Virus record (IMG/VR): IMGVR_UViG_3300023296_000005
Length of the DNA stretch: 35,853 nucleotides
Direction: 5' to 3' (one strand)
DNA from: a virus
Positions 3,157 through 35,013 of this stretch are shown in pieces (the stretch's first letter is position 1; every line of letters starts with the position of its first letter). The notes beneath the pieces were generated by a model, which ran no database searches, was not told where the DNA came from, and saw only the letters and a list, made by a program, of their open reading frames with translations. The position numbers were made by a program, and so were the translations under genes.

Positions 3157-4995
3157 ATGATAATTAACGGCGACAGTATGGAAGTATTAAAAACACTGGA
3201 CGAAAACTCGGTAGACTCAATTGTTACCGATCCGCCCTATGGTTTATCATTTATGGGTAAAGCCTGGGATCACTCAGTACCTAGTGCTGAATTGTGGCAA
3301 GAAGCCCTTAGGGTGTTAAAGCCTGGTGGCTATCTACTAGCATTCGCAGGAACTCGCACCCAACACCGTATGGCTGTAAACATAGAGGACGCAGGCTTTG
3401 AGATAAGAGACATGATAGCTTGGGTGTATGGTTGTCTAAGCGAAGATACCGAAATACTAACTAAGGACGGGTGGAAACTGTACCATAAAAACATATTATC
3501 TGATAGCGTACTATGCTATAATATAGACAATGACACCTACGAATACAACCAACCAACTAAAAAATACTGGTACAGAAACGAACATACCGCCTACAGCATT
3601 AAGTCAGATACTACAGACCAAATCGTCAGTAGAAACCATCGTGTTATTGTTGAACGAAACGGAAGAAAAGAGTTTGCCTACGCCGAAACACTGGAACGCC
3701 AAGAGGGTGTACCCGTACTGGAAAGCCTGTCTAGTTTGCCAGACACCATTTATGACGTACACCAAAGAGCAAGCACAACGAAACAAGACTTGCTCAACCG
3801 AGTGTGCGAACAAGATGATAGGCAAAGCCAACAGTGGGAAGAAGCAGACAAAACAGAAGTGTCCAGTCTGCGAGCAGATGTTCTATCCAGCGAGCCAGAG
3901 CAAGAACAAGCCAAGAATAAACTGCTCAAGTATATGCAACGGTTACTTACGTGGCAAAGAGTGGGGTACACACGCCTACAAGGGCAGAGCCAACTGGACA
4001 CCAGAGAGCGAACTAGCACTCAAGCAACGAATGACGGGCGAAACGAATCCAAGCTGGAAGGGTGGAGTTACCTATCGCAACCGCAAGGGCAAATACGCCG
4101 AGCAAGCGATAAAATACGTCAGATGTCCAAAAGATTATTTAGCTATGGCGAGGACAGACGGCTATGTTATGGAACACCGACTATTAGTAGCTATGCAGAT
4201 GCAACGACCACTTACGAGAGCCGAGTGCGTACATCACATCAATCACGACGCAACGGACAACAGAATAGAGAACTTAATGCTATTCAAGACCAACGGGGAA
4301 CACAAGAGATACGAGTGGGGTCAAGCCATAGTACCACTTTGGCAACCGTAACACCAATTGAGTATAACGGTCATGTCTGGTGCGTTGAAGTGCCAACGGG
4401 TGCATTTGTAGCAAGGCGTAACGGTAAGGTATTTATTACAGGCAACTCAGGCTTCCCTAAAAGCCATAATATAGGCAAGGCTGTGGATAAGATGCAGGGT
4501 AATGAGAGGGAAGTAAGTGGTACTGGTACTGCTGGTGCTGGATTCAACAAGGTTAAAGGATTTGGTCAGAACACTACAAAAGGGGGAGAAGCTACTACTG
4601 AGTGGGATGAAACCAAAGGCACATCACCCCACGAAGGCTGGGGCACTGCACTTAAGCCTGCACTAGAACCTATAACAGTAGCTCGTAAACCATTCAAAGG
4701 TACAGTAGCAAACAACGTACTAGAGTGGGGTACAGGTGGTATCAATATAGATGGTTCGAGGGTAGGGACAGATATAATGCCAGCCGTAGAGATTAAACAT
4801 AGTTATGGTAATGGGAGCGATAATCATTTCGGCGGTGGAAAACCCAGAGGCAAAGTAACAACAACCCAAGAAGCACAAGGCAGATTCCCTGCTAACCTAA
4901 TACTGTCGTATCCAGAAGACGAGTACACACTAAAGGACAACGTAGCTCCTGATGAACTAAGAAAACTAGCGGAGTATTTAGATGCGAACGCCTAA
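3157..4995 (+). CDS. N6/N4 DNA methyltransferase, N-terminal gene fragment, containing an intein
   Basis: DPPYG catalytic motif. WVYG / SGFPKS is interrupted by a Hint element. Downstream motifs: ALKPALEPITVARKP, GGINIDGSRVG, GRFPANLIL. Confidence 0.85.
   Translation: MIINGDSMEVLKTLDENSVDSIVTDPPYGLSFMGKAWDHSVPSAELWQEALRVLKPGGYLLAFAGTRTQHRMAVNIEDAGFEIRDMIAWVYGCLSEDTEILTKDGWKLYHKNILSDSVLCYNIDNDTYEYNQPTKKYWYRNEHTAYSIKSDTTDQIVSRNHRVIVERNGRKEFAYAETLERQEGVPVLESLSSLPDTIYDVHQRASTTKQDLLNRVCEQDDRQSQQWEEADKTEVSSLRADVLSSEPEQEQAKNKLLKYMQRLLTWQRVGYTRLQGQSQLDTRERTSTQATNDGRNESKLEGWSYLSQPQGQIRRASDKIRQMSKRLFSYGEDRRLCYGTPTISSYADATTTYESRVRTSHQSRRNGQQNRELNAIQDQRGTQEIRVGSSHSTTLATVTPIEYNGHVWCVEVPTGAFVARRNGKVFITGNSGFPKSHNIGKAVDKMQGNEREVSGTGTAGAGFNKVKGFGQNTTKGGEATTEWDETKGTSPHEGWGTALKPALEPITVARKPFKGTVANNVLEWGTGGINIDGSRVGTDIMPAVEIKHSYGNGSDNHFGGGKPRGKVTTTQEAQGRFPANLILSYPEDEYTLKDNVAPDELRKLAEYLDANA
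3433..4446 (+). mobile_element. Intein (338 codons) inserted between WVYG and SGFPKS
   Basis: Starts CLSEDTEILTKDGW. Has a block-B-like VSRNHRVIV. Ends HVWCVEVPTGAFVARRNGKVFITGN with Ser at +1. Excision restores a contiguous conserved motif. Confidence 0.8.
3530..4351 (+). CDS. HNH homing endonuclease in the +1 frame inside the intein (true start uncertain; a GTG at 3707 is possible)
   Basis: Two CxxC...CSxxC zinc ribbons, NPSWKGG, and HHINHDATDNRIENL. The stop falls at the start of the C-terminal Hint block. Confidence 0.75.
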   Translation: MTPTNTTNQLKNTGTETNIPPTALSQILQTKSSVETIVLLLNETEEKSLPTPKHWNAKRVYPYWKACLVCQTPFMTYTKEQAQRNKTCSTECANKMIGKANSGKKQTKQKCPVCEQMFYPASQSKNKPRINCSSICNGYLRGKEWGTHAYKGRANWTPESELALKQRMTGETNPSWKGGVTYRNRKGKYAEQAIKYVRCPKDYLAMARTDGYVMEHRLLVAMQMQRPLTRAECVHHINHDATDNRIENLMLFKTNGEHKRYEWGQAIVPLWQP

Positions 4996-5575
4996 TACTA
5001 ATTGCGACGTGTGTAATGCCGAGTTATACAGGCGACCAGGCGACCAAGCTAAGTTTAATTCAGTTTGCTGTAGGGGTTGTCGGTCAGAGCTATACAAGAA
5101 CAGAGAGCCATCACCCAACCTATTACTTGGCAGAGTTAAGGGCAATAACCATTTAACTGGTATTCCTAAAACAGAATTACACCGCAACAAGATGAAAAAG
5201 ATAATGAGTGAATGGTGTTCTAACAACACAGATAAGGTAGCCGAAAGAGCAAAGAAAACACGCATGGAAAACCACTATCTATGGAATGGTGGCTCAACTA
5301 TACTAAACCAAAAAATACGCAGAATGATAAATATGCGAAACTGGCAAAAAAGTGTCAAAAAAAGAGATGGCTATGTTTGTTTGTGCGGCTCTACCGAGAA
5401 CCTTGAAGCCGACCATATAGTAGAACTTAGAACACTATTGGTTGAACATAATATAAAATCAACCGAAGAAGCTAGGGCCTGTGTGGAGCTATGGGATATA
5501 TCAAACGGACAGACACTATGCCGTAAATGCCACTATGCCAAAGACGGTAGACAATTTAGAAAGGTAACCGCATGA
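4982..5575 (+). CDS. Free-standing HNH endonuclease that splits the methyltransferase gene
   Basis: CDVC...CCRGC ribbon. CLCGSTENLEADHIVE...NGQTLCRKCHYAK HNH motif. The start overlaps the upstream stop by 14 nt, and the stop overlaps the downstream ATG (ATGA). Confidence 0.85.
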   Translation: MRTPNTNCDVCNAELYRRPGDQAKFNSVCCRGCRSELYKNREPSPNLLLGRVKGNNHLTGIPKTELHRNKMKKIMSEWCSNNTDKVAERAKKTRMENHYLWNGGSTILNQKIRRMINMRNWQKSVKKRDGYVCLCGSTENLEADHIVELRTLLVEHNIKSTEEARACVELWDISNGQTLCRKCHYAKDGRQFRKVTA

Positions 5576-6504
5576 ACATCGACAAGACAACATTTGATAA
5601 ACTGCCAGATGAAATAAAGAGGCTATTTGTTAAAGCGCCCAATCCTGGTAGTGATGAGGTAGTAGGGTTGTTTCCTGATACTAAGACAAACTCAACGGGC
5701 AAGAATAGCCCATCAGATTATAATACTAAAAGTGTTTTTGGTGCTGGAACGGGTAGTGGTGCTAAGCCTTACGGTGGCGACTCTGGCTCTGCTGCTCGCT
5801 TTTTTTATTGTGCGAAAAGTTCAAAAGCAGAACGCAATAAAGGGCTTAACAGGCTTAACTGTGCTATAATAGATATATGCAAAGACGAAAATACGGAACA
5901 GGTCACATCACTCCTAAGGGATATATTAGAATCAATACCCAATTTGAACATAGACGAGTCTGGATTGAGGCTAACGGTGCAATACCCAAAGGATACTATG
6001 TCCACCATATTAACCACGATAAATCAGATAACCGACTTGAAAACCTACAGCTTGTTGATGCAATCACCCACAAGAGAATCCATGAAGGATGTATTGTCAA
6101 AGATGATGAATGGCTTAAGCCCTGTGGAGTCTGTAAAGAGTTTAAGCGAATTGACGATGACAACTGGTACTTCTCAAGAGAAGGGTGGATTAGCTACGGA
6201 AGATGTAAGAAATGCCATGTATCAAAGGTTGTTGAAGCTAAAAGACGAAAGCGAATGGAAGCCAAGAACCTCGACACATCCAACGGTTAAGCCAGTCCGC
6301 CTGATGCAATACCTAGTCAAGCTAGTAACACCAGTGGGCGGTATTGTCCTCGATCCATTTAACGGCTCAGGCACTACAGGCATAGCTTGTAAGCTCGAGG
6401 GCTTTGAATACGTGGGTATTGAGCTAGACCCAGAATACTGCACCCTATCAGAGGCTCGTATAGAGGCATGGGCAATAGAAGCAGAACAGGTAAGTATGCT
6501 ATGA
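5572..6504 (+). CDS. N6/N4 DNA methyltransferase, C-terminal gene fragment, with an inserted segment of about 140 aa
   Basis: GSDEVVGLFP, GDSGSAARFFYCAKSSKAERNKG, HPTVKPVRLMQYLVKLVTP, and VLDPFNGSGTTGIA (SAM-binding motif). Confidence 0.85.
   Translation: MNIDKTTFDKLPDEIKRLFVKAPNPGSDEVVGLFPDTKTNSTGKNSPSDYNTKSVFGAGTGSGAKPYGGDSGSAARFFYCAKSSKAERNKGLNRLNCAIIDICKDENTEQVTSLLRDILESIPNLNIDESGLRLTVQYPKDTMSTILTTINQITDLKTYSLLMQSPTRESMKDVLSKMMNGLSPVESVKSLSELTMTTGTSQEKGGLATEDVRNAMYQRLLKLKDESEWKPRTSTHPTVKPVRLMQYLVKLVTPVGGIVLDPFNGSGTTGIACKLEGFEYVGIELDPEYCTLSEARIEAWAIEAEQVSML
5877..6290 (+). CDS. HNH homing endonuclease (HNH_3-like) in an alternate frame inside the methyltransferase C-fragment
   Basis: GYIRI...EHRRVWIEANGAIPKGYYVHHINHDKSDNRLENL plus a CGVC...CKKCH ribbon. 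The stop lies within the host HPTVKP codons. Confidence 0.8.
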   Translation: MQRRKYGTGHITPKGYIRINTQFEHRRVWIEANGAIPKGYYVHHINHDKSDNRLENLQLVDAITHKRIHEGCIVKDDEWLKPCGVCKEFKRIDDDNWYFSREGWISYGRCKKCHVSKVVEAKRRKRMEAKNLDTSNG

Positions 6505-8593: not shown

Positions 8594-9260
8594 AGTATCA
8601 CAGCAAAACGACAGAGAAGCCTGGCTACAACTTCGTAGGGGTGTTATTACTGGCACAAAAGCAAAAACAACCGCACCGCCTAAACGTGGCAACGTAACGC
8701 CTCAAGGTATATTTGAGCTTCTTGCCGAGCATGTAGCTATTCAAAAAGATGGCGAGCCAGAACGTGATCGTGGTTTGCGATTAGAAAACGAAGCCCTGCA
8801 AGCAACTGCAAGCAAGTACAATTTAGACTTAGACTACGACCCTGGCATGTGGTTTTCAGATGACGGCAAACTAGGCGTAAGCCCAGATGCTTCAGAAAAA
8901 AGCGACAACCCAACCTTTGCAGCAGAAGCTAAATGTTTAGATAGTAAAAATCACTTGCAAGGTATACTCAACGATCAAGCCAACAAGAAGCTACCACAGT
9001 ATAACCCACTAGACAGCTTAAAGATTGCAACATCAGACTTTACTGCACAAGCCATACAATACTTTGTGCTTAATCAAAGCCTAAACATATTGTACTTTAC
9101 CCTATACGATGATCGCATTGCCTTAGACAACGTAGTACACTATGTTATAGAGATTAACCGCAAAGACGTTGCAGAATACATTGACGGTCAAGAAACATAT
9201 CAACGAGACGCACTGGCAAAAATTGATGGAATGATTAAAGTATTGAAAGGCATTAAATAA
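8580..9260 (+). CDS. YqaJ-like recombination exonuclease (PD-(D/E)XK)
   Basis: EAWLQLRRGVITGTKA, GVSPDAS, AEAKC. Adjacent to the annealase. Confidence 0.7.
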   Translation: MKVIKVSQQNDREAWLQLRRGVITGTKAKTTAPPKRGNVTPQGIFELLAEHVAIQKDGEPERDRGLRLENEALQATASKYNLDLDYDPGMWFSDDGKLGVSPDASEKSDNPTFAAEAKCLDSKNHLQGILNDQANKKLPQYNPLDSLKIATSDFTAQAIQYFVLNQSLNILYFTLYDDRIALDNVVHYVIEINRKDVAEYIDGQETYQRDALAKIDGMIKVLKGIK

Positions 9261-9568
9261 TGGGCGACCAAGACGAACGCAGAGAAGCAAGAGCAATAGT
9301 ACGAACCTACAAAGACGCAGACGGTAAAGATAAAAACGTTTATCAGACTTTAGGAACGGCGTGGGTAAGCCCTCACGCATCTACGATCACTATACAGCTT
9401 GAAACAATTCCAATAGGTAAAAACTGGAACGGCAAAGTATACATAAACAAACCTTATGAAAAAAGCGACAAAGAACTAACTCACACTTTTAACAAACAAG
9501 CTACTAAAGATGTAATATTAGAAGACATTGACGACAAACCCATTGACCTTAGCGTAATACCTTTCTAA
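9260..9568 (+). CDS. Small SSB-like protein with a C-terminal IPF tail (tentative)
   Basis: 102 aa ending DDKPIDLSVIPF. Sits in the recombination module. Confidence 0.4.
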   Translation: MGDQDERREARAIVRTYKDADGKDKNVYQTLGTAWVSPHASTITIQLETIPIGKNWNGKVYINKPYEKSDKELTHTFNKQATKDVILEDIDDKPIDLSVIPF

Positions 9569-9576
9569 TGTATAAT
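9569..9576 (+). promoter_or_regulatory. -10-like element TGTATAAT upstream of ninG
   Basis: Sequence match. Followed by an imperfect long hairpin at roughly 9617-9690. Confidence 0.35.
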
Positions 9577-9702
9577 AGTAATGTCTACCACAACAAGCCT
9601 ACTATCGGGCATCCTAGCCCACTCATCACGCACCTTTATTTCATACAAAATGAATGTCTGTTTAACATGGTGAGGGGACTAGGACGGATTACCGAATAAA
9701 TT

Positions 9703-10227
9703 ATGGCTCAAGATAATAAAACATGCCCTCATTGCAAAACTGTTGGTCACTCAGGCTTCTACTGCAAGTCACCCCTAAAGCCACGCAAACCCCTTAAGCG
9801 CGCTGCAATTAAAAAGACAGTAGCCAAAGCACCTGTTAAGAAAAAAGCTAAGAAGCGATCCTACTACGTTAAGAAGCTAGACAGCGTATTTAGCCAGTAC
9901 ATTCGTCAAAGCAAATCAGTAGACGGCATTGGTACGTGTGTTACTTGCGGCACCCCTAAGCCCTGGAAAGAAATGCAAAACGGACACTTCTACAGTCGTG
10001 GACGTTATGGCACACGATGGGATGAAACCAACTGTCATATCCAAGATGCTGCTTGCAACGTGTTCTTAAAAGGCAACTATATAAACTACACCAGGTACAT
10101 GATAGACAAGTATGGGCGTGAGTACGTAGACGAATTAGAAATTAAATCAAAGTTATCCACAAAGATTACTACTGTTGAGCTACAGGAAATGATAAACCAT
10201 TACCAAAACCTATTGACCGAAGCATAA
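9703..10227 (+). CDS. ninG: NinG/Rap-family recombination endonuclease
   Basis: LDSVFSQYIRQ...CVTCGT...QNGHFYSRGRYGTRWDETNCHIQDAACNVFLKGN. Confidence 0.75.
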   Translation: MAQDNKTCPHCKTVGHSGFYCKSPLKPRKPLKRAAIKKTVAKAPVKKKAKKRSYYVKKLDSVFSQYIRQSKSVDGIGTCVTCGTPKPWKEMQNGHFYSRGRYGTRWDETNCHIQDAACNVFLKGNYINYTRYMIDKYGREYVDELEIKSKLSTKITTVELQEMINHYQNLLTEA

Positions 10228-15357: not shown

Positions 15358-15624
15358 ATGGACATAAACAAACTAATGGAACGCTATAACATATCCCACG
15401 GTATTGAAAACGACCAGGTGGACATAGACATGTTTAAGGCAGAACTTGCGGAGACAATTGCAACCGAGAAACTAGACACCGCTTACGAGATCACGCTAAA
15501 GTACGCCTGTATGAGCAAATGGCAACTACTACGCACAGACTTTAACCACGACTTAGATCGCATGGAAGATGAACTTGGAGAGCGCATGGAAGATGAACTT
15601 TGTATATGGGAGTGCAAGCTATGA
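15358..15624 (+). CDS. Hypothetical protein containing a 24-nt tandem duplication (RMEDELGE/RMEDELCI)
   Basis: RBS AAGGAGG. Repeat copies at 15559-15576 and 15583-15600. Confidence 0.7.
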   Translation: MDINKLMERYNISHGIENDQVDIDMFKAELAETIATEKLDTAYEITLKYACMSKWQLLRTDFNHDLDRMEDELGERMEDELCIWECKL

Positions 15625-15878
15625 GTAATACACTAGATGAGATACTAAACGATGCAACATTCCATCCTAGCGACATAGAGATGGACAATGAACGCAAAGA
15701 ATACGCCAAAGCTGACATCCAAGCCCTCATAACAGAAGCAAGGGTTAAATTAGCTAACTTGTACGGTGAGCCTAGATGTGAAAACCTACACCATGCCAAA
15801 AAGAACCAACATACATCTACAGAAGACTGCCCTGTAGAAAAAGCAATAACAGCCCAACTAAAGGAGAACAAGCTATGA
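15621..15878 (+). CDS. Hypothetical protein, MSNTLDE... paralog 1
   Basis: The ATG at 15621 overlaps the upstream stop (ATGA). The N-terminus is shared with 15875 and 11881, and the C-terminus is QLKENKL. Confidence 0.7.
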   Translation: MSNTLDEILNDATFHPSDIEMDNERKEYAKADIQALITEARVKLANLYGEPRCENLHHAKKNQHTSTEDCPVEKAITAQLKENKL

Positions 15879-16123
15879 GTAATACACTAGATGAGACTAT
15901 TAAAGAAAAACTGGGTCAAGTTATAGATGACTTATGCAACATGGAAATGCCAGGTCGTTATCATAATCAAGACTGGGCAGGATACGCCCTTCTACAGCTC
16001 ATAAGAGAAGCAAGGATATCTCAAATAAGAAAAATGGATAGGCACATTAAAGATGTATGGGGAGTCAACAACAACAACGATTATTTTATTGCTGAGATAA
16101 AACTAATAAAGGAGAATAAGTAA
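15875..16123 (+). CDS. Hypothetical protein, MSNTLDE... paralog 2
   Basis: AAGGAGAA RBS, ATGA overlap, ends IKENK. Confidence 0.7.
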   Translation: MSNTLDETIKEKLGQVIDDLCNMEMPGRYHNQDWAGYALLQLIREARISQIRKMDRHIKDVWGVNNNNDYFIAEIKLIKENK

Positions 16124-16272
16124 TGAGTAACCAAATCAACCAATCAACTAAAGGAGAAACAATTATGACCACAATACTATTCGCAGTAAAAGCTATATCA
16201 CTACTAATCGCAGCAACACTAATTATCGCATCAGGCGTTGGACTTGCATTGATCGCACTCGGAGTTGTCTAA
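16123..16272 (+). CDS. Small TM protein (49 aa; the alternative start at 16165 gives 35 aa)
   Basis: Both ATGs have an AAGGAGA-type RBS. TM segment: ILFAVKAISLLIAATLIIASGVGLALIALGVV. Confidence 0.55.
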   Translation: MSNQINQSTKGETIMTTILFAVKAISLLIAATLIIASGVGLALIALGVV

Positions 16273-16364
16273 TGGGTAAATCTAAATTGTCGGCATTTGC
16301 ACTGCACTTTGAGTATGACCGGACACTAAAAGATATCAAGAAAAAACACAGGGGGACGGCATGA
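16272..16364 (+). CDS. Possible 30-aa basic peptide
   Basis: TAATG and ATGA overlaps only. No other support. Confidence 0.3.
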   Translation: MGKSKLSAFALHFEYDRTLKDIKKKHRGTA

Positions 16365-16654
16365 AAATTATACTTATATTGTTAGTGTTAGCAACTACAG
16401 TTATATTTACCGGTATGTTTATACGCACAACGATGTCATCTGTTGGGGCAGCAGCACCAGCCTTTGATTACTCAAATTGTCAATATCCTAATCGCGAAAG
16501 CAACCCGCCAAACGGGTGTGACAACACAGACCCTGCTCGCCCTGAGTGCATGAAAAGCGGAAAAGAAAATTGTGACTTGCCATCTAACCCATCAGTCATT
16601 GTTGAACAGCCAGTAAAGTCAAACACAGTAAAACATAAAACTTGCAAACTATGA
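16361..16654 (+). CDS. Secreted or membrane Cys-rich hypothetical protein
   Basis: N-terminal signal-like helix MKIILILLVLATTVIFTGMF and 6 Cys residues. Confidence 0.7.
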   Translation: MKIILILLVLATTVIFTGMFIRTTMSSVGAAAPAFDYSNCQYPNRESNPPNGCDNTDPARPECMKSGKENCDLPSNPSVIVEQPVKSNTVKHKTCKL

Positions 16655-16660
16655 TATAAT
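16652..16660 (+). promoter_or_regulatory. Extended -10 element TGaTATAAT ahead of the glycosyltransferase operon
   Basis: Canonical TGnTATAAT overlapping the upstream stop codon. Confidence 0.45.
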
Positions 16661-16673
16661 CATAAACATGATA

Positions 16674-16741
16674 AGAACCGCACTCAAATCTAGCACTCCC
16701 GACCTTGTTCTTTGCGGTTCTAGGGTCGGGGGTTTTGTATT
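16674..16741 (+). promoter_or_regulatory. Structured leader with a terminator-like hairpin (candidate attenuator)
   Basis: Stem A pairs 16674-16682 with 16713-16721 (9 bp). Stem B pairs 16695-16706 with 16722-16733 (about 12 bp) and is followed by TTTGTATT. Confidence 0.4.
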
Positions 16742-16750
16742 GGAGCAATC

Positions 16751-17023
16751 ATGCAACCACTTGAAATAGCAAAAGACCTTAAAAAACTTGTTGATAAAGA
16801 CATAAAGATTATTTATCGTAAAAACTTAGTTAAAGCCTACAGAGACTTGTATGATATCGAGATACCAGTAAAATCATTTGTTATTGTGTTGCAAAAAGAT
16901 GATATCGACGGTGTGCGACATAGCATGAAAATGATTATAGACGCTAATATTACCGATACAAAGTACGAAAAAACTATTGACAAGATAGTAAAAAAGATAA
17001 ATAAAGCAGGGGCAAAGGTATGA
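16751..17023 (+). CDS. Hypothetical protein, first gene of the glycosyltransferase operon
   Basis: 90-aa ORF whose stop overlaps the next ATG (ATGA). Confidence 0.7.
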   Translation: MQPLEIAKDLKKLVDKDIKIIYRKNLVKAYRDLYDIEIPVKSFVIVLQKDDIDGVRHSMKMIIDANITDTKYEKTIDKIVKKINKAGAKV

Positions 17024-17961
17024 AAATTACATTTGTTGGTAACTTTGATGTTGACTATTCCTCAGAAAGCCATCACGCAAAAACTCTTGAGTCGCTTGGT
17101 CACGAAGTTGTGCGTCTGCGAGAAGGCAAAACAACAGGTGAGGTAATACTTGACGCTGCTTTAGACTCTGAACTTCTTATATTTGTACACACTCATGGCT
17201 GGGAAACCCCTGGGCTTTCAATGAACATGGTGTTTAAGACGCTTAAAAAAGTTAATATACCATCGATAACCTATCATTTAGATTTATGGCTTGGGATCGA
17301 ACGACAAAAAGACCTAGAGCAAGACCCGTTCTATAAAACCATTGAGCATTTTTTTACTGTTGACAAACTTATGGCTGATTGGTTTAACAACAACACCGAG
17401 GTTAAGGGTCATTATATACATGCCGGTGTTTACGACGGCGAGTGTGTCCCCGATGTAACAGCAGGTTTATTAAACGAAGTTATTTTTGTTGGTTCAAAGG
17501 GGTATCACCCAGAGTGGGCTTACCGTCCACATCTTATTAACCAACTAACCGAGCATTACGGTAATAAGTTTAAGCATTTTGGCGGCGATGGCCTTGGCGT
17601 GGTACGTGGTCAAGCCTTAAACCAGTTGTATGGATCTACTAAGATTGCAATTGGCGACTCACTCTGTATCAACTTTGACTATCCACACTATTGGAGTGAT
17701 CGTGTTTACGAAACTATGGGTCGTGGTGGCTTCATTATTCATCCCTACATCAAGGGTATGGAAGATGACTTTATAGACGGCAAGCACCTTGTATTTTACG
17801 AGTTCGGTAACTTTGAAGATTTGTATTCAAAGATTGACTATTACCTAGAACACGATGATAAGCGTGAAGCTATCAGGAAGGCTGGCCATGAACACGTAAA
17901 GGCCAACCACACATACAAAAACAGATGGCAGTCAATTATAGATACGGTAGTTAATCAATAA
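17020..17961 (+). CDS. CgeB-like / GT1-type glycosyltransferase
   Basis: The C-terminal pattern RVYETMGRGGFIIHP...FYEFGNFEDLYSKIDYYLEHDDKREAIRKAGHEHVKANHTYKNRW resembles the Glyco_trans_1_2/CgeB family. Confidence 0.6.
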   Translation: MKITFVGNFDVDYSSESHHAKTLESLGHEVVRLREGKTTGEVILDAALDSELLIFVHTHGWETPGLSMNMVFKTLKKVNIPSITYHLDLWLGIERQKDLEQDPFYKTIEHFFTVDKLMADWFNNNTEVKGHYIHAGVYDGECVPDVTAGLLNEVIFVGSKGYHPEWAYRPHLINQLTEHYGNKFKHFGGDGLGVVRGQALNQLYGSTKIAIGDSLCINFDYPHYWSDRVYETMGRGGFIIHPYIKGMEDDFIDGKHLVFYEFGNFEDLYSKIDYYLEHDDKREAIRKAGHEHVKANHTYKNRWQSIIDTVVNQ

Positions 17962-19556
17962 TGATTTACTACTTATCATTAAGACATGATATACCTTGCC
18001 GTGATTATTGGGATTATGGCATTTTAGAGTGCCTTAATATGGACGGAAAAGAAGTACGCACGCTGCCTGTTTTAGATAGCGGTGTTGTTGTATTACCTGC
18101 ACGAAGTCACGCTGGGTATGAGGATAAGCTTAACGCGCAGCTAAGTGGTATCAAGAACGTTGTTTTGTTTCTCATGGGCGACGAAGAAGCTCAATTTGAC
18201 GTAGATAAAATCAAACATGACTCAATCAATATCTGGGTTCAAAACCCACACATGGGCAAGCACGACGCATATCACAAAATAGGTACTGGCTACACTCCAC
18301 AATCACAAATAATCTTGCCCACTATCAAGCCTATGAATAAGCGTGGTGTCTTTTTTGCCGGTCAAATAACGCACCAACGACGAGAAGAACTGCAAAGAGT
18401 TCTTGAACATTATAAAAATACTATGAACGGCGATGTTGACTTTCACCCGTCTGCTGGCTTTACACAGGGATTAAAGCCCCAGGAGTATTACGTTGGCATG
18501 GTCAAGGCTATTGTTGCTCCTGCGCCGTCTGGTGCAGTCATACCAGACTCGTTCCGCCTATTCGAGGCGCTAGAAAGCATGACAATACCAATTGCAGACC
18601 AAAGATGTGCAAACGGCAATGTAATGGAATACTGGGATTGGTTGTTTAATGATGAGACACCCTTTCATAAAGTTGTTGATTGGGATAGGCTGCCGACATT
18701 GTTTGATCAAATAACCGCTGAATACCCAAGTAACTTGCATAGGCAAAGCGCTTGGTGGTTAATGTGGAAACGCAACTTTAGAAACAAAGTCAAGGATCAA
18801 CTTGGATTAGAGCAAGATAAAATTACAGTTATTATACCAACCTCTGTGCTACCCTCACACCCGTCTACTGCAATTATTGATCAAACGATTAACGATATAC
18901 GAACGCACCTGCCAACAAGTGAAATCATCTTACAGGTTGACGGTTTACGAGATGAGCAAACTGACAGGAAAGTAGAGTACAATGAATATAAAAACACAAT
19001 ACTTTGGAAGTGCTTGCACGAGTGGGACAATGTATTGCCCGTTGTCTTTGGAACACTACATCATCAAAGCGGAATGCTTAGGGAAACTATAGACTTAGTA
19101 CGATCACCCTTGGTTCTTTATGTTGAAGGCGATGCGCCGCTTACGCCAGACAGGGAAATTGATTGGGACAAATGCATTAACTTTATTCTTGACGGAAAAG
19201 CAAATACAATTAGATTTCACCACGAAAATGTTATCCCCGTAGACCACTTGCCTCTAATTATTGGCGAAGTGGATGGGGGATTCTTAAAAACAATACAGTG
19301 GAGCCAACGCCCCAATCTTTCAACAAAGATGTACTACAAAGAAGTTGTTTTACCTACTCTACCAAAGGCAAACTTTATTGAAGACACATTCCACGGAGTT
19401 GTACAAGATGATTTTAATCTGTACGGAATGCCAGGTTGGAATAAACACCGATTATGGATATATCACCCAGATGACGGAATACAACGCAGCTACACCACCG
19501 ATGGGCGTGCTGGCGGTAAAAAATATACATCTGATGACGAAACATGGGGGCTATAA
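17961..19556 (+). CDS. Two-domain glycosyltransferase: exostosin-like N-terminal half and GT-A (GT2-like) C-terminal half
   Basis: FFAGQITHQRREEL...PAPSGAVIPDSFRLFEALESMTIPI, then ITVIIPTSVLPSHPS...LYVEGDAPL. Confidence 0.5.
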   Translation: MIYYLSLRHDIPCRDYWDYGILECLNMDGKEVRTLPVLDSGVVVLPARSHAGYEDKLNAQLSGIKNVVLFLMGDEEAQFDVDKIKHDSINIWVQNPHMGKHDAYHKIGTGYTPQSQIILPTIKPMNKRGVFFAGQITHQRREELQRVLEHYKNTMNGDVDFHPSAGFTQGLKPQEYYVGMVKAIVAPAPSGAVIPDSFRLFEALESMTIPIADQRCANGNVMEYWDWLFNDETPFHKVVDWDRLPTLFDQITAEYPSNLHRQSAWWLMWKRNFRNKVKDQLGLEQDKITVIIPTSVLPSHPSTAIIDQTINDIRTHLPTSEIILQVDGLRDEQTDRKVEYNEYKNTILWKCLHEWDNVLPVVFGTLHHQSGMLRETIDLVRSPLVLYVEGDAPLTPDREIDWDKCINFILDGKANTIRFHHENVIPVDHLPLIIGEVDGGFLKTIQWSQRPNLSTKMYYKEVVLPTLPKANFIEDTFHGVVQDDFNLYGMPGWNKHRLWIYHPDDGIQRSYTTDGRAGGKKYTSDDETWGL

Positions 19557-20557
19557 TGCGTTTAGGTTTAATTGCAAGAGCAGATAAAACAGGATTAGGG
19601 TATCAAACCCATGACTATTACAAGTTCTTAAAACCAGATAAAACTGTTGTTATTGATTTATCGCCGCTAAACGGCAACCCACAACATACACAGTGGTATC
19701 AAGACTACAATTTGATAAAAGGCATACCAGACGATGACCAGGTACGCAACATGCTATCTGGCTTGGATGTTATCCTTACCGCAGAGACACCATACAACCT
19801 TAACCTTTACAAAATAGCAAGGGAAATGGGAGTAAAAACTATATGCGTTGAAAACCCCGAGTTTTACGACCATGTTAAATACCCTCAATATGAAATGCCT
19901 GACATGATAATCCTACCAAGCACCTGGAAAGAGGACTACATACGGGAACATGCAGAGTCTCGTGGCACAAAAGTAGTACAGCTACACCATCCAGTAGACC
20001 GAGATACCTATGAGTACCGTGAACGAACAACTACAAAAACTATGCACATTGCCGGGAAGCCAGCAGAAAACGACAGAAACGGCACGTGGTTGTATATGAA
20101 CTCACAGCCAAAAGGTATTGTTACAACCCAGAGCAGCGACTTTGCTTGGCACATAAGGCGTAAATACCGACACTCAAACGTATTTGACAATGTACAGAAC
20201 CAACTACAGCTTTATTCGTTCGGTGATATATTAGTATTACCTAGAAAATACGGTGGTAATTGCTTACCCTTAAACGAAGCATTGTCAAGCGGTATGCCAG
20301 TTATTATGCCAAACATATCACCGAACAATCATTTGTTACCTAAAGAGTGGCTGGTTGACGCTAGGGTAGTTGGTTACTTTGAACCTCGCGGCAGAGTTGA
20401 TATATATGAGGTAGACCCAGACGACTTACATCGTAAAATTACATACGTTCAAGAAAACATTAAAGCCGAAAGCCAAAGGGCAAACGCCATTGCTGATTCA
20501 ATTAGCTGGACTACTCTATTACCTAGGTGGCAAGAAGCTATAAAGAGCTTACTATGA
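19556..20557 (+). CDS. GT-B-type glycosyltransferase
   Basis: The ATG at 19556 overlaps the upstream stop (TAATG). LVLPRKYGGNCLPLNEALSSGMPVIMP. Confidence 0.55.
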   Translation: MRLGLIARADKTGLGYQTHDYYKFLKPDKTVVIDLSPLNGNPQHTQWYQDYNLIKGIPDDDQVRNMLSGLDVILTAETPYNLNLYKIAREMGVKTICVENPEFYDHVKYPQYEMPDMIILPSTWKEDYIREHAESRGTKVVQLHHPVDRDTYEYRERTTTKTMHIAGKPAENDRNGTWLYMNSQPKGIVTTQSSDFAWHIRRKYRHSNVFDNVQNQLQLYSFGDILVLPRKYGGNCLPLNEALSSGMPVIMPNISPNNHLLPKEWLVDARVVGYFEPRGRVDIYEVDPDDLHRKITYVQENIKAESQRANAIADSISWTTLLPRWQEAIKSLL

Positions 20558-21216
20558 ATATACTTTGTATAGCGATGGTTGAGGATAGAGCTAACCTTGA
20601 TAAACAAATACTAAAGCAGACTGTGCAGCCTGACAGGACTATATTTTACGTTGATGAATCACCGGCTATTCTGCTAGAAGAACGCAGACAGCGTATTGCC
20701 GAAAACCACAAAAAGCTACAAGAGATTGTTAAAGCATATAACCCAGACCTAGTGTGGCAAGTAGAGGGAGATGGAGACTACCCAGCAGACACTCTTGAAA
20801 GGCTTGTCATTCATTATGAAGTGCTAAAGGGTAAAGACTTTGGCTATGTCTCTGGCATACAAGTAGGGCGACACGGATTGTACCACATAGGAGCTTGGAA
20901 GAACTTTACCAAAACATCATTTGAAAGCATTGACTTTAACCTTAAAGGTATACAAGAAGTAGATGCCACAGGATTCTATTGCTTGCTTGCTCCAACAGAG
21001 GTATGGCTTAATGGTTTGTGTAAGTGGACTGATGAGCCTTACGGTCCTGATGTTGTATGGGGTTTAAGCATAAACAAAAAGAAATACGTTGATATGGATC
21101 TTAGCATAGGGCATATTGTCAAGAACGGAATTATCTTACCTAAGCATATTAGCACTTGCAACGTAAGGTTCGATAAAGGGGAAAACGGAACATGGAAGTT
21201 CAAGCAATTAGATTAA
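20554..21216 (+). CDS. Putative GT-A-like glycosyltransferase
   Basis: The ATG at 20554 overlaps the upstream stop (ATGA). ILCIAMVEDR..., and VEGDGDYP as a DXD-like motif. Confidence 0.35.
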   Translation: MNILCIAMVEDRANLDKQILKQTVQPDRTIFYVDESPAILLEERRQRIAENHKKLQEIVKAYNPDLVWQVEGDGDYPADTLERLVIHYEVLKGKDFGYVSGIQVGRHGLYHIGAWKNFTKTSFESIDFNLKGIQEVDATGFYCLLAPTEVWLNGLCKWTDEPYGPDVVWGLSINKKKYVDMDLSIGHIVKNGIILPKHISTCNVRFDKGENGTWKFKQLD

Positions 21217-21232: not shown

Positions 21233-21610
21233 ATGACAACTACAAAGCAAGTTAGAGACTACATTCCCAACCCAGAAGGCAAGGGTGGCTTTCAGGATCG
21301 TCCTCAAGACCGCTCTGATGGTCGTTGGGATAAAGCTGACTCTATTAGCTACCAGTACAGCAAGCTCCTTAGAATGGGCGAGAAAGAGTTTGAAGACTTC
21401 GTTCCAGAAACAGTTGCACAAAGGATTGCTCTTGTCAGGCTTAACCAATCTATTAAGGCAGACGGACTTGCTGACACTAGAGAAGTAACAGACCGCACAG
21501 AAGGCAAAGCACCACAGTTTATTGGCTTGGGCGACAAGGAAGATTACAACATAGCATTGGTGGAGTTTATAAATGGCGACGACAAAGATACAGATACCCC
21601 AGGAGTTTAA
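21233..21610 (+). CDS. terS: Terminase small subunit (putative)
   Basis: Lies immediately upstream of TerL and overlaps it. NPEGKGGFQDRPQDRSDGRW-type N-terminus. Confidence 0.55.
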   Translation: MTTTKQVRDYIPNPEGKGGFQDRPQDRSDGRWDKADSISYQYSKLLRMGEKEFEDFVPETVAQRIALVRLNQSIKADGLADTREVTDRTEGKAPQFIGLGDKEDYNIALVEFINGDDKDTDTPGV

Positions 21611-22820
21611 GGAGTTATTTAATCCTTACTGGCGTTACTTCCTTGTCTACGGTGGACGAGGTAGCTTAAAGTCACACACTGTAGCAAGAAGGCTAGTTAT
21701 TGTTGCACGTGAACGCAAGGTGCGTATTCTTTGCACCCGTGAGTTGCAAAAGTCAATCAAGGATTCAGTACATAAGCTTATTGCTGACATTATTAGCGAG
21801 TACGGCTTTACTGACTTCGAGGTGCAAAAAGATGCAATACGCAACACTGTGACTGGATCAGAGTTTATCTTTACTGGTATACGAAACAATACAAACGAAA
21901 TCAAATCAATGGAAGGTATTGACTTTTGTTGGTGTGAAGAAGCACACGCACTGACCGAAGCATCTATTGACATCCTTACACCTACCATACGCAAGCCAGG
22001 TTCACAAATTATATTCACGTACAACAGGCTTAATGAACTTGACCCAATACACAGCAAGTTTGTTATAAACAAGAAAGCAAAGACATGTGTTATCAACGTC
22101 AATTATGAAGTAGCAATTAAGTACGGTTGGTTTCCTGATGTGCTACAGCAAGAAATGGAGCTTGACAAACTAGAAAACCCAAGCTTGTACGCACACAAGT
22201 GGCTCGGTGAACCGCTTAGTCAGACCGACACTGCAATTATTAGCAGAGATGCAATTATAAACGCTATGCAGCGCACTATAAAGCCAGAGGGAGCTATTGA
22301 GATTGGCGTTGACGTTGCGCGCATGGGCGGAGACCGCACCGTATTCTTTAAGCGCAAGGGTTTGCGACAAGAGAACAAACGCATTTACAGCAAGCTACGA
22401 ACTACAGAAGTGTGCGATAAACTTGAGATGTTTGCAGACTTTGACAAAGAAGTGTTGATAAAGGTTGATGATACTGGTGTTGGCGGAGGTGTTACTGACG
22501 AGATGATGGAGCGTGGTTACAATGTTATGCCAATTAACTTTGGTGCTAAAGCAAGCGACCCCGACAAATACACTAATCTTATCAGCGAAGCATGGTTCTA
22601 TATTCAATCACACATCAATGAAATGCAATTAGACATGGACACTGATTTAATTATGGAGCTATCCTCAAGGCAGTGGAAAATGGACGCAAAAGGCCGTAGG
22701 GCGGTTGAGAGCAAAGACGACTACAAAAAGCGCGGTTTTCGCTCACCCGACATTGCCGATGCCTTAATACTTTGTTATTATTCTGGTAATACACTTGACA
22801 TGGATGATATTTATCTTTAA
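21573..22820 (+). CDS. terL: Terminase large subunit, PBSX/Terminase_3-like
   Basis: Walker A YGGRGSLKSH, and CWCEEAH as Walker B/C-like. C-terminal nuclease region includes IGVDVARMGGDRTV. Confidence 0.85.
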   Translation: MATTKIQIPQEFKELFNPYWRYFLVYGGRGSLKSHTVARRLVIVARERKVRILCTRELQKSIKDSVHKLIADIISEYGFTDFEVQKDAIRNTVTGSEFIFTGIRNNTNEIKSMEGIDFCWCEEAHALTEASIDILTPTIRKPGSQIIFTYNRLNELDPIHSKFVINKKAKTCVINVNYEVAIKYGWFPDVLQQEMELDKLENPSLYAHKWLGEPLSQTDTAIISRDAIINAMQRTIKPEGAIEIGVDVARMGGDRTVFFKRKGLRQENKRIYSKLRTTEVCDKLEMFADFDKEVLIKVDDTGVGGGVTDEMMERGYNVMPINFGAKASDPDKYTNLISEAWFYIQSHINEMQLDMDTDLIMELSSRQWKMDAKGRRAVESKDDYKKRGFRSPDIADALILCYYSGNTLDMDDIYL

Positions 22821-25176: not shown

Positions 25177-25884
25177 ATGCACATTAAATCAGAAGCGTAC
25201 ATTGAAAAAGCAACAAAGCTCCAAGAGGGAGAAGTTGAGTTTGTCGTATCAACTAATGATATGGACTCACACGGCGAAAGAATAGACGTAAACGGAATTG
25301 ATTTAACTGAGTTTAAGAAAAACCCAGTTGTCTTATGGGGCCACGATGGCTTCAACCTACCTATTGCTAAAGCAGTAAAGGTTTGGAAAGATAACGGGAA
25401 ACTTATGGCTCGTGCTAAGTTCTATATGAAAGACGACTTTGCCCGTAAGGTCTATGACTACATTATGGACGGTTACCTAAACGCTGTATCTATTGGCGGC
25501 ATGGTAAAGCAATGGGGAACAGACGGCATGACAATTGCTGAGATGATGATGAAAGAGTTTAGTGTGGTATCGGTACCTGCAAACCAAAACGCACTAGTAT
25601 CTAATAAGTCACTTGACGGCAACCAGAAGGCAGAGCTTAAAGCACTTGCTAACGGTTACGCACGTAAAATGCTTTCTACTGGCGATAATGAACTAAACAA
25701 GAACATCGAGACCCTAGAGACACTCGTTGCCACCTTAAAGGAAGTAGCCCACGGCAAAACCCATGAGGATTCGGCTGACGGTACATTAACTCGACGAGTG
25801 GTTTTGCGCCAAGCGCAAGTGGTCGATCAGCAAATCGAAACTGTCATCCGACAGATTAAACTAAAAGGAGACTCAAATGAGTAA
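25177..25884 (+). CDS. Prohead serine protease, HK97 family (S78)
   Basis: VVSTNDMDSHGERID...KNPVVLWGHD...VSIGG...FSVVSVPANQNA. Confidence 0.8.
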   Translation: MHIKSEAYIEKATKLQEGEVEFVVSTNDMDSHGERIDVNGIDLTEFKKNPVVLWGHDGFNLPIAKAVKVWKDNGKLMARAKFYMKDDFARKVYDYIMDGYLNAVSIGGMVKQWGTDGMTIAEMMMKEFSVVSVPANQNALVSNKSLDGNQKAELKALANGYARKMLSTGDNELNKNIETLETLVATLKEVAHGKTHEDSADGTLTRRVVLRQAQVVDQQIETVIRQIKLKGDSNE

Positions 25885-27112
25885 AGAAAACATTGAGATT
25901 GACGCAGAAGTAATCAAGGCTGTTGCCGATGAAGCTGCTAAATCCGTAAAAGAAGGTCTTGTTATGCCAACGGCATCAGACATTGCAAAAGAAATGGTTG
26001 CACTAACAGAAAAAACAGAAAAAAAGAACGTAACATCAGAAGTTGAAAAAACGGAAGTAAAAAGCACTATGGATAACCTATCAAAAGAAATGCGATTTGC
26101 TAAGGGTGTTTTTGCATTCAAAAACGGCAACGCTGCACAAATTGCAGAATACAACACATATGTTGACAAAGCATGGTTCGATGTAAACAAAGCTGACTAC
26201 CAGAACGTTGCTACAACAGCTGACGGTGGCGCACTTGTTCCCGACCCAGAGTTTGTTGCAGAAGTAGACCGTCTTACTGACGAATACGGTGTTGTTTCAC
26301 GACTAGCTACTATTCGACGTACAGACCGAGACTCAGTAACACTATTAAGTGGTACAAACGAGATCAGCTTTACTAAGACTGGTGAAGCAGTTGCTAAAAA
26401 CTCACAGAAGCTAACTTACGCTGCATCAACCGCTGCTCTTGACAAGTACATCGCAACATTGGTAATGACAAGTGAAATCGTAGAAGATTCCGCTATCAAC
26501 CTTTTCAACGATGCTGCTAACGAAATTGCACGCGCACGAGCTAAATTGTTTGACGAGCTAGTATTTACAGACGCTACCTACGGTCTATTAAGTGCATCAG
26601 CTGGTGATACTTACAAGACTATTAGTGTTGGTGCTGCTATTACTGACTTTAGCGCTGATGACGCAATGAATGGCCGATACAAGGTTGTTTCAAGCGCTCG
26701 CCGCAATGGTCGTTACTTCATGCACCCAACAGTATGGAACGCCCTACGCCAGACAAAATCTGGTGATGGAACTGACTCAGCAGCCAACTACCTATTCGGT
26801 GGTCCTGGACAGAGTGTCGCACAAAATATCGACGGCGTGCCTGTCGAATTAGTAGACATCCTACCAGAAATTGGTGATATCACAGCGAACGAAGCATTTG
26901 CAGTATTTGGCGACCTTGCGCGTATTCAGTTACACGTTAAGCGATTGCTAGAAACTAAAATCTTTGATAGCGGTGTTGTTAAAGACTCAGGCGGAGCTGA
27001 CATTAACTTAATTACACAAGATTCATTTGCAATCCGTGCTACATTGCGCGTTGTTCCTCAAACTCGTTTTGAAGGTGCATTCGTTATATTTGGTACAGGC
27101 ACAGTTTCTTAG
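25877..27112 (+). CDS. Major capsid protein, HK97 fold, with an N-terminal delta/scaffold region
   Basis: Position after the protease. TTADGGALVPDPEF. 411 aa. Confidence 0.8.
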   Translation: MSKENIEIDAEVIKAVADEAAKSVKEGLVMPTASDIAKEMVALTEKTEKKNVTSEVEKTEVKSTMDNLSKEMRFAKGVFAFKNGNAAQIAEYNTYVDKAWFDVNKADYQNVATTADGGALVPDPEFVAEVDRLTDEYGVVSRLATIRRTDRDSVTLLSGTNEISFTKTGEAVAKNSQKLTYAASTAALDKYIATLVMTSEIVEDSAINLFNDAANEIARARAKLFDELVFTDATYGLLSASAGDTYKTISVGAAITDFSADDAMNGRYKVVSSARRNGRYFMHPTVWNALRQTKSGDGTDSAANYLFGGPGQSVAQNIDGVPVELVDILPEIGDITANEAFAVFGDLARIQLHVKRLLETKIFDSGVVKDSGGADINLITQDSFAIRATLRVVPQTRFEGAFVIFGTGTVS

Positions 27113-27142: not shown

Positions 27143-27670
27143 ATGGCAAACTTAAATAACCTATATGTAGCCGGCGGAAGCCTTGTTACCTTTGGTGGTG
27201 TTGATCTCGGTCACACTGTTGATGGTACTGAGGTTCAAGTTGAGCGTTCGTTAACAATGGTCAAAACCGATTTATACGGTGAGACCCCTGTTGACTACGT
27301 TGTAACTGGTCAAACCGCTACAGTAACGTTGAAGTTGGCCGAAATTACTCCCGATGTACTATCATATGTTTTACCTGAGTCAGATTATGACAACGGTTCA
27401 TCAGATGATCACTTGCACTTCGGGACTAAAGCTGGATACAGTCTACGTGCCGACGCATTAGAGCTTGTTATTACCCCTCAAGGTCGTAACAGCGATAATG
27501 GTCGTACCGTAACACTGTTCAAGGCTATCTCAACCGGTAACGTTTCATTTGCGTATAAGATTGATGAGCAAAGCGTTTACGAAGTGACCTTTACGGCACT
27601 TGTAGACGAATCACGATCTGCTACTGATGGACGCTTACTAGGTCGTGTCGGCCCGGTAGCTATTAGCTAG
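27143..27670 (+). CDS. Abundant structural protein, tail-tube-like (putative major tail protein in a non-canonical position)
   Basis: Strong RBS GGAGGA and beta-rich sequence, followed by a strong terminator. No other tube candidate lies before the chaperones. Confidence 0.4.
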   Translation: MANLNNLYVAGGSLVTFGGVDLGHTVDGTEVQVERSLTMVKTDLYGETPVDYVVTGQTATVTLKLAEITPDVLSYVLPESDYDNGSSDDHLHFGTKAGYSLRADALELVITPQGRNSDNGRTVTLFKAISTGNVSFAYKIDEQSVYEVTFTALVDESRSATDGRLLGRVGPVAIS

Positions 27671-34404: not shown

Positions 34405-35013
34405 ATGGCAGATAAAGAAATTAAGCAATTAACAGAAGAAACAACACCAGAAACCGGTGATTTCTACATAATGCAAAAAGTATCCAATGATGACACCGTG
34501 AAAGTTGATGCAGATAACGTATTGCCAGTTAACAGCGTAACCACGGCTAAGATTTTAGATGCAAACGTGACCACTGCTAAACTAGCAGACGGTTCAGTCA
34601 CAACAGACAAAACATATGTAAAAACAGTATATGCAACCTGGACTCCGTCGGGGAACAGCGATGCTACAAGTGGTGGTTTTGCTGATTATGGTTCTGGAAC
34701 TGTATCGGTTACTGTACCGACATGGGCAACAAAAGTTATTGTTTCTACATCTATTTTTGGTACATACCAAATTACTAGTACATCAGAAACAGATTTGAAA
34801 ATTGTCTTTGGTAGTGTTAGTGGCGTAACAGTACACAAGTATTCACTTGTAGCTTCGCAAGCCAACGACTGCGCATGGAGTGAAGAACTTACATTAAGCG
34901 GCACAGGTTCACAGACATTAAAGGTTCAGGCTCGCAGGACTTCTGGTACTGGCGCTATGCGTACGCCAACAAACGCCTTATTCAGTTTTGTAATAACATT
35001 TGCCGCAGTATAA
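34405..35013 (+). CDS. Tail fibre / receptor-binding protein (putative)
   Basis: IKQLTEETTPETGDFYIM...VTTAKILDANVTTAKLADGSVTTDK N-terminal motif. Confidence 0.55.
   Translation: MADKEIKQLTEETTPETGDFYIMQKVSNDDTVKVDADNVLPVNSVTTAKILDANVTTAKLADGSVTTDKTYVKTVYATWTPSGNSDATSGGFADYGSGTVSVTVPTWATKVIVSTSIFGTYQITSTSETDLKIVFGSVSGVTVHKYSLVASQANDCAWSEELTLSGTGSQTLKVQARRTSGTGAMRTPTNALFSFVITFAAV

Follow-up and report, generated by a model that had tools for sequence, protein, structure and literature searches.

A widespread phage glycosyltransferase cassette with a two-domain exostosin-like enzyme beside the terminase genes

The viral DNA of IMG/VR record IMGVR_UViG_3300023296_000005, 35,853 nucleotides (nt) long and called the window here at its full length, carries five tightly linked genes, g1–g5, directly upstream of its packaging genes. 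We find that g2–g5 make up a phage glycosylation system of new and widespread composition, with the two-domain protein g3 as its distinctive hallmark enzyme. At roughly even odds (about 0.5), these enzymes glycosylate a virion structural protein of the phage in the cytoplasm. No paper joining exostosin-type glycosyltransferases (GTs), bacteriophage and terminase was found in a full-text search of the literature.

Enzymes of the cassette

The genes and domains of the block are the following, with protein lengths in amino acids (aa).

16751..17023, + strand: g1, 90-aa soluble protein, ATGA-coupled to g2 and outside the conserved cassette
17020..17961, + strand: g2, 313-aa GT-B glycosyltransferase of the CgeB-type Glyco_trans_1_2 family (PF13524, phrog_28745)
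17961..18806, + strand: g3 N-terminal domain (aa 1–282), minimal exostosin/GT47- or A075L/GT114-like GT-B (profile matches, invariant residues)
18822..19526, + strand: g3 C-terminal domain (aa 288–522), GT-A fold with the metal/donor motif YVEGDAP (E389-x-D391) (AlphaFold 2 (AF2) model, Foldseek)
19556..20557, + strand: g4, 333-aa GT4-like GT-B glycosyltransferase (phrog_2170, PDB profile matches)
20554..21216, + strand: g5, 220-aa GT-A-fold glycosyltransferase with a VEGDGD (ExD) motif (AF2 model, Foldseek)

The original prediction on this DNA had described five genes linked by ATGA/TAATG overlaps, four of them encoding transferases, and both points stand. The open reading frames (ORFs) are in place, and the junctions read from the sequence are ATGA for g1/g2, TAATG for g2/g3, TAATG for g3/g4 (start 19556) and ATGA for g4/g5 (start 20554). 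All four proteins g2–g5 have a GT-A or GT-B fold with conserved donor-binding or catalytic motifs, and they hold five catalytic domains among them. Alternative starts exist for g4 (19544 for 337 aa or 19556 for 333 aa) and g5 (GTG at 20527 for 229 aa or ATG at 20554 for 220 aa). The coupled starts, which give a g4 of 333 aa and a g5 of 220 aa, were also chosen in the public annotation of identical contigs. No transmembrane (TM) segment is predicted in any of the five proteins.

The g3 gene spans 17961–19556 and encodes 531 aa. On its own the protein matches PF24785 RXYLT1_C at 1.5e-5 and 24.9 bits, below the gathering score of 27, and many of its 976 homologs carry precomputed matches to PF03016 Exostosin (GT47) and PF24785 RXYLT1_C. 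The profile of its N-terminal domain matches best, among PDB structures, those of the chlorovirus A075L and exostosins, at a marginal E-value of 1.3e-3 over ~110 residues. Conservation and the AF2 model were both built on 46 homologs of 40–68% identity. Invariant among them are D74, E75, R140, R141, G191, D196, R199 and E202 in the N-terminal half and D327, E389, D391 and QWSQRP in the C-terminal half.

In the same profile match, the invariant DSFRLFEAL of g3 is aligned to DTHRLWESL of A075L, whose arginine we take to be Arg208 (by a numbering that we infer) and which aligns with the invariant R199. A075L has the phosphate-binding Arg158 and Arg208 and the catalytic base Asp73 (PMC11571054). 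R140/R141 and D74/E75 of g3 are plausible equivalents of Arg158 and Asp73, the alignment covering only the donor-binding half. From the residues conserved, both g3 domains look catalytically intact.

The AF2 model of g3 has a predicted local distance difference test (pLDDT) value of 90.9, and the domain boundaries were drawn from it. By Foldseek, its best matches over the full length are human EXT1, EXT2 and EXTL3 (7scj_B, 7zay_B, 8og4_A) at 7.7e-9 to 2.1e-8 over 556–667 aligned columns, and PmHS2 also matches over most of the length. These exostosins are heparan sulfate polymerases made of a GT47 GT-B and a GT64 GT-A domain, and g3 has the same domain order, a GT47-like GT-B followed by a GT-A in one chain. 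The identity is 9–10% and the domain orientation differs, hence the template-modelling score (TM-score) is ~0.3. The exostosins have a membrane anchor and a stem, and their chains have 568–710 residues, whereas g3 is soluble with 531 aa. According to the model, what g3 has in common with them is the two-domain architecture, not close kinship or established membership. After the exostosins, its C-terminal domain matches TarS, TarP, RmlT, B4GALNT1, GalNAc-T2 and GtrB.

Residues 171–308 of g2 match PF13524 at 6.6e-24, above the Pfam threshold, and its full length matches the glycosyltransferase family phrog_28745 at 1.5e-30; its profile against the PDB was uninformative. The g4 protein matches the glycosyltransferase family phrog_2170 at 5.4e-18 and Pfam Glycos_transf_1 weakly. 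Its profile finds the GT4 enzymes MshA (2.4e-4), Gtf1 (8.3e-4) and TarM (0.013) in the PDB, and a GG..L..NEA motif is invariant in its family.

The window g5 protein has no match in Pfam, PHROG or NCBIfam, and 7 of its 39 homologs match Glyco_tranf_2_3 weakly. Its AF2 model (pLDDT 95.5) matches in the PDB STIV A197 best (6.8e-7), then Mimivirus R699, human ColGalT1, SpsA and GnT-I. In BFVD it matches GT-A domains from uncultured tailed phages, of which the best (1.1e-11) is part of a fusion with an FkbM methyltransferase. In the EGDGD motif (WQVEGDGDY), the E and the second D are invariant in the 39 homologs, and the motif provides an invariant ExD. A paralogy of g5 with the g3 C-terminal domain was considered and rejected, their alignment being limited to the strand-plus-ExD motif and not significant.

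Profile searches hence gave glycosyltransferase families for g2 and g4, and modelling gave glycosyltransferase folds for g3 and g5. The earlier calls of a CgeB/GT1-like g2, an exostosin-like and GT-A fusion in g3, a GT-B enzyme in g4 and a GT-A-like protein with an EGDGD motif in g5 are all borne out by these matches and models.

Distribution of the cassette

A word-indexed search found 976 homologs of g3 and 201 of g5. Among 1.84 billion proteins, the g3 profile matched 696 representatives of 50%-identity clusters at E<=1e-30, nearly all of them full-length two-domain proteins. Therefore, g3 and g5 are real genes, not chance ORFs. At every locus with a full-length g3, tblastn places g2 upstream and g4 immediately downstream, with g5 detectable in a subset, and an FkbM-type methyltransferase gene often lies between g2 and g3. 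Hundreds of uncultured phages, as well as phage elements of Nocardia and Mycolicibacterium, share g2-g3-g4 as a syntenic cassette, with or without g5 and FkbM.

Natural fusions join g2 with g3 (P0332), FkbM with g3 (P0356) and g3 with g4 (P0260, P0261, P0340, P0374). These fusions, the synteny and the ATGA/TAATG junctions together indicate that the cassette genes serve one pathway. The small g1 is outside it. No family match was found for g1 in Pfam, PHROG or NCBIfam, and tblastn over the cassette loci found it only in identical or near-identical phage contigs. Of the five-gene unit proposed originally, g2–g5 are conserved but g1 is kept only among near-identical phages. As a side observation, one g3 homolog (P0305) has a ~257-aa intein-like insert at g3 residues 192–194, within the invariant donor motif.

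The cassettes are expanded in 72–85-kb phages (L062, L063) with a nucleoside-diphosphate (NDP)-sugar epimerase/dehydratase and up to three methyltransferases of FkbM and S-adenosylmethionine (SAM) types. Features of the expanded cassettes lie at 9045–10013 and 13145–13630 of L062 and at 4913–5731 of L063, and an inserted Fic-domain gene separates g3 from g4. Fic enzymes modify proteins, and the insertion may hint at a protein substrate.

The position of the cassette recurs as well. In the window, L003, L008 and L064 it immediately precedes the packaging genes, in L020 it comes after a holin gene, and the portal gene is 1.4–4 kb downstream of it in L010, L015 and L034. The terminase relatives of the window, at 7 loci, give no contrast of presence and absence, as all that reach far enough upstream carry the cassette.

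In cellular genomes, the matches are partial and cover only the N-terminal domain of g3, and full-length relatives are on phage-like or short contigs. The Nocardia pulmonis locus (L020) has a host-like guanine-cytosine (GC) content of 69% and encodes a MuF-domain protein and an r1t-type holin, then g2-g3-g4 and a g5-like GT-A protein. The Mycolicibacterium moriokaense locus (L008) has the order g2, FkbM, g3, g4, a g5-like gene, TerS, TerL, portal and capsid. It is on DSM 44221 scaffold_14 at 38462–59991, its GC content of ~50% is well under the high GC expected for the genus, and it carries Replic_Relax and ArdC-like genes. Instead of an ordinary prophage, L008 may represent a plasmid-like phage or a contaminating contig.

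Among cultured phages (50,697 phage records of the GenBank collection of August 2025), tblastn found neither g3 nor g4, and megablast of window 14–25 kb found no close relative. The cultured-phage relatives of g2 are only in Streptomyces phages, at 23–28% identity, where the gene sits with a methyltransferase gene after the tail and lysis genes. Cassette identity is 35–45% among phages binned with very different hosts, the host labels of these metagenome-assembled genome (MAG) bins being inconsistent and unreliable. The relatives closest to the window phage come from lake MAG bins, Erken and ELA among them, which is at most suggestive of a freshwater habitat.

Acceptor of the glycan

In the proposed mechanism, g2–g5 would form a late-expressed cytoplasmic pathway that builds a multi-sugar glycan from host nucleotide-sugars. 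The acceptor would be supplied by the phage, most likely as a virion structural protein that is glycosylated during particle assembly. A single-domain enzyme (g5, g2 or g4) would put the first sugar on the protein. Then g3, with its inverting-type exostosin-like GT-B and metal-dependent GT-A domains, would add two more sugars or polymerise a disaccharide repeat, and in the relatives FkbM methyltransferases would cap the chain or decorate it. Such a coat would shield the virion or alter the properties of its surface, an outcome that mycobacteriophages and chloroviruses reach with unrelated enzymes.

A phage-carried acceptor fits because the cassette moves between phages of very different binned hosts at 35–45% identity. 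Methylated or deoxy sugars are indicated by the FkbM/SAM methyltransferases and the NDP-sugar epimerase/dehydratase that relatives add. A virion protein fits best since the enzymes are soluble and would be co-expressed late with the assembly genes, the chemistry is that of methyl sugars as in Che8 gp108, and the acceptor would move with the phage. The cassette adjoins packaging genes, or the lysis/packaging boundary, in unrelated phage backbones. The best sequence match of the g3 N-terminal domain, A075L, is itself a capsid-glycan enzyme (PMC11571054). Moreover, phages of Mycobacteriales glycosylate capsid and tail-tube proteins (Freeman 2023, as related in PMC12363180 and PMC12619734), and the virion reading gains support because the bona fide hosts of the relatives belong to this very group.

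Several points weigh against a virion acceptor. None was identified among the virion proteins of the window, and no convincing S/T-rich C-terminal extension was seen on its capsid, Ig-like and tail proteins, a difference from the C-terminal acceptor tails reported for mycobacteriophages. The cassette is among non-structural genes in the larger phages L001, L062 and L063, and morons, too, classically sit between lysis and packaging genes. DNA hypermodification is likewise late and precedes packaging (PMC13326640), and DNA GT genes sometimes adjoin the terminase gene (Pyle preprint, 10.1101/2023.12.21.572611), so that position alone does not discriminate the targets. The matches to TarS/TarP/TarM, ColGalT1 and EXT are at the family or fold level and do not indicate the acceptor. 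Finally, the cassette has no detectable homology to Che8 gp108–110.

The last point concerns one of the closest functional parallels, the phage-encoded run of soluble GTs in Che8 (gp108–110), Corndog (gp38) and Myrna (Freeman et al. 2023, as described in PMC12363180 and PMC12619734). Che8 gp108 combines GT2 and O-methyltransferase domains, to which the FkbM genes in the relatives of the cassette are a parallel, and the Che8 GT genes are at the genome end beside an HNH gene. On a concatemer they would presumably be beside the terminase gene. However, hhalign gave probabilities below 1%, namely 0.4% and 0.06% for g5 with gp110 and gp109 and 0.13% for g3 with gp108. The families also differ, being GT2 and GT25 in Che8 and CgeB-type, exostosin-like plus GT-A, GT4-like and orphan GT-A in the window. 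Hence, the mycobacteriophage parallel drawn in the original prediction fails at the level of homology by hhalign and tblastn. The match of g5 with gp110 (GT25) was rejected as not significant.

The other virion precedent is PBCV-1 A075L of the chloroviruses, the founder of CAZy GT114, a virus-encoded cytosolic minimal GT-B that was formerly annotated as an exostosin and resembles the g3 N-terminal domain (PMC11571054). This enzyme of a eukaryotic virus is single-domain, whereas g3 has an extra GT-A domain. The chlorovirus system and the window-type cassettes both pair multidomain GTs with sugar methyltransferases.

It is doubtful that the cassette instead remodels a host envelope glycan, such as teichoic acid, an arabinogalactan-type or other wall polysaccharide or a lipopolysaccharide precursor, at the cytoplasmic face during infection. 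The purpose might be to block superinfection or to keep progeny from re-adsorbing to debris, which we consider just as tentatively. The g3 C-terminal domain and g4 resemble the cytoplasmic wall-teichoic-acid GTs TarS, TarP, RmlT and TarM, among which TarP is prophage-encoded and soluble, but this resemblance is at the fold level with 10–17% identity. Relatives occur in Nocardia prophages and the lysis/packaging slot is a typical moron position, but an integrase and a repressor are both missing from the window genome, whose operon runs on into the late packaging genes. Neither a flippase, a GtrA/GtrC-like protein nor any other membrane component accompanies these GTs, which have no TM segment themselves. 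The cassette is also kept in phages binned with very different envelopes, by bins that are unreliable, and a host-specific acceptor would hardly account for this.

Known lysogenic conversion systems (GtrABC, prophage TarP) share with the cassette the GT-A fold likeness of the g3 C-terminal domain to TarP, TarS and GtrB. They differ in that GtrABC-type modules have GtrA/GtrC-type membrane proteins and lysogeny genes, which the window does not, and in that their operons are independently expressed while that of the window is joined to the late packaging genes. Between the two alternatives offered in the original prediction, the evidence leans to virion glycosylation, and serotype conversion is disfavoured for want of a lysogeny module and membrane parts.

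A product that is free or at least not on the virion, such as a soluble or secreted polysaccharide, a non-structural phage or host glycoprotein or a small-molecule glycoside, seems quite unlikely. It would suit the two-domain polymerases EXT1/2 and PmHS2 that match g3 over most of its length, the place of the cassette among non-structural genes in large phages, the Fic-domain gene inserted in two lineages and the finding of no acceptor motif on the virion proteins. However, no exporter or membrane synthase is present, a set of five conserved GT domains plus methyltransferases points to a defined and anchored glycan, and the small-phage cassettes are consistently linked to the packaging module.

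Glycosylation of the phage DNA, with an oligosaccharide built on a hydroxylated base before packaging, is improbable. Phage GTs acting in sequence can make di- and oligosaccharides on DNA (Pyle preprint; PMC13326640), that modification is late and some DNA GT genes are beside the terminase gene (Pyle preprint). Such DNA-glycan clusters (Pyle et al. preprint; RB69/DLP3 arabinosylation, PMC13326640) resemble the cassette in their sequential GT-A/GT-B enzymes acting late. The known pathways are clustered, with a route from C5-methyltransferase (C5-MT) through TET-like dioxygenase to GTs that follows replication (Pyle preprint). Their base-hydroxylating partner, either thymidylate synthase (ThyS) or C5-MT with 5mYOX/TET, is however absent from the window genome and from the fetched flanks of relatives.

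Over all ORFs of >=80 aa, the complete window genome has no thymidylate-synthase homolog, 5mYOX/TET, C5-MT, deoxynucleoside monophosphate (dNMP) kinase or DNA polymerase. The absence of base-hypermodification genes noted originally therefore holds, including for the C5-MT/TET route not considered then. The fetched flanks of L001, L003, L008, L062 and L064 likewise have no ThyS, 5mYOX/TET or C5-MT. The relative L063 has a C5 DNA methylase ~8 kb away, with no dioxygenase in view. DNA methyltransferases of the window are only of the N6/N4 type, which suggests ordinary bases protected by methylation. Neither T4 beta-GT nor JGT-type enzymes are among the listed fold matches of g3 and g5, and we know of no case of FkbM sugar methylation on DNA glycans.

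A bolder version of virion glycosylation, to which we hold only loosely, is that g3 is a phage exostosin-type co-polymerase. Its two sites, as modelled, would alternate to make a repeating heteropolysaccharide coat on a primer from g2, g4 and g5. The chain would be glycosaminoglycan- or matriglycan-like, capped by FkbM in the relatives and made wholly in the bacterial cytoplasm. If so, polysaccharide-coated tailed phages would be widespread among uncultured, apparently freshwater, phages and phages of Mycobacteriales.

So far, only for a few mycobacteriophages has virion glycosylation by phage enzymes been shown, and there it weakens recognition by antibodies. The window-type cassette is non-homologous to their system and far more widespread, with 696 cluster representatives for g3. 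If it decorates virions, glycan coats would be common on tailed phages in nature, with bearing on phage stability, adsorption, immune visibility and phage-therapy design. In g3, bacterial viruses would have a compact and soluble version of an architecture known mostly from work on animals, which would interest glycoengineering. Although absent from the cultured phages, the cassette is experimentally reachable through the Nocardia and Mycolicibacterium isolate genomes, among them N. pulmonis CDC141, N. asiatica NBRC 100129 and M. moriokaense DSM 44221.

Genome layout and expression

The ends of the window are an exact direct terminal repeat of 127 base pairs (1–127 = 35727–35853), which indicates a complete genome of ~35.7 kb, either circularly assembled or terminally redundant. 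All substantial ORFs are on the + strand. The g1–g5 block takes 4466 nt or 12.5% of the unique genome, and its GC content does not differ from that of the other parts (0.408 against 0.423). The following features surround the block.

16650..16658, + strand: extended -10-like promoter element TGATATAAT, read directly with TTGCAA just upstream; putative function
16695..16741, + strand: intrinsic-terminator-like hairpin (ACUCCCGACC...GGGUCGGGGGU) followed by the U-run UUUUGUAUU, ending ~10 nt before the g1 start
21233..21610, + strand: probable small terminase subunit TerS, 125 aa, by position alone with no family match (Pfam, PHROG)
21573..22820, + strand: large terminase subunit TerL (PF04466 1.7e-32; phrog_3717 5.6e-60)

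The gap from g5 to the probable TerS ORF is 16 nt, and the counterpart of this ORF in L008 is GP3_package. The share of about 12% of the genome and the position just before the terminase, as predicted, agree with these values. On the 3′ side of TerL, the genes encode a portal-MuF fusion, a protease, an HK97-type capsid protein, an Ig-like protein, a tape measure protein and Dit. The capsid gene occupies 25877–27112 and the Ig-like gene 27143–27670, and another virion protein, p202, is encoded at 34405–35013. The TerL protein matches best those of Bifidobacterium phages at 39%, and the capsid matches are weak. Family scans of all ORFs of >=80 aa found no integrase or repressor in the complete genome, and Pfam and PHROGs recognised no endolysin or major tail-tube gene in the window. 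The window has no tRNA and no Rfam match.

The hairpin was found by eye and then by folding, as the consensus scan missed this long-loop structure. It folds at dG -25.4 kcal/mol with a z of -2.29, 3 of 200 shuffles being as good, and its inverted repeat was detected as well. Since the space between the hairpin and g1 is too short for a promoter, the operon would have to be reached by read-through. The scan for promoters and terminators found no terminator between g5 and the terminase genes. This arrangement suggests read-through transcription of the cassette together with the packaging and structural genes.

The TGATATAAT element is ~35 nt upstream of the hairpin. It was not reported by the promoter consensus scan, which gave fewer matches in the window than in shuffled sequence. 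The element, the hairpin and the U-run before the late genes (window 16642–16741) are similar in layout to lambda P_R'-t_R'. By this analogy, the layout suggests antitermination control of the late genes; no antiterminator gene was identified in the window.

Just 5′ of the cassette are genes for a holin-like protein of 49 aa, which has two TM segments, and for a Cys-rich protein of 97 aa, whose TM segment is N-terminal. Small membrane proteins are encoded at 684–953, 16123–16272, 16361–16654 and 35019–35435.

The N6/N4 DNA methyltransferase gene at 3157–6504 looks interrupted twice. An intein within ORF 3157–4995 runs from C93 ('CLSEDTEILT...') to '...FITGN|S' at about residue 430, and a weak PHROG match to thymidylate synthase at residues 83–230 of the 612-aa methyltransferase was dismissed as lying within this intein. 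A free-standing HNH endonuclease ORF (4982–5575) splits the N-terminal part from ORF 5572–6504, where the S-adenosylmethionine (AdoMet) motif DPFNGSGTT sits; Rfam found no group I intron at the interrupted gene. The relative L003 has intein domains (PT-HINT, Intein_splicing) at 15584–20812 in its terminase-position ORF and in its portal. Inteins are frequent in the phage group of the window.

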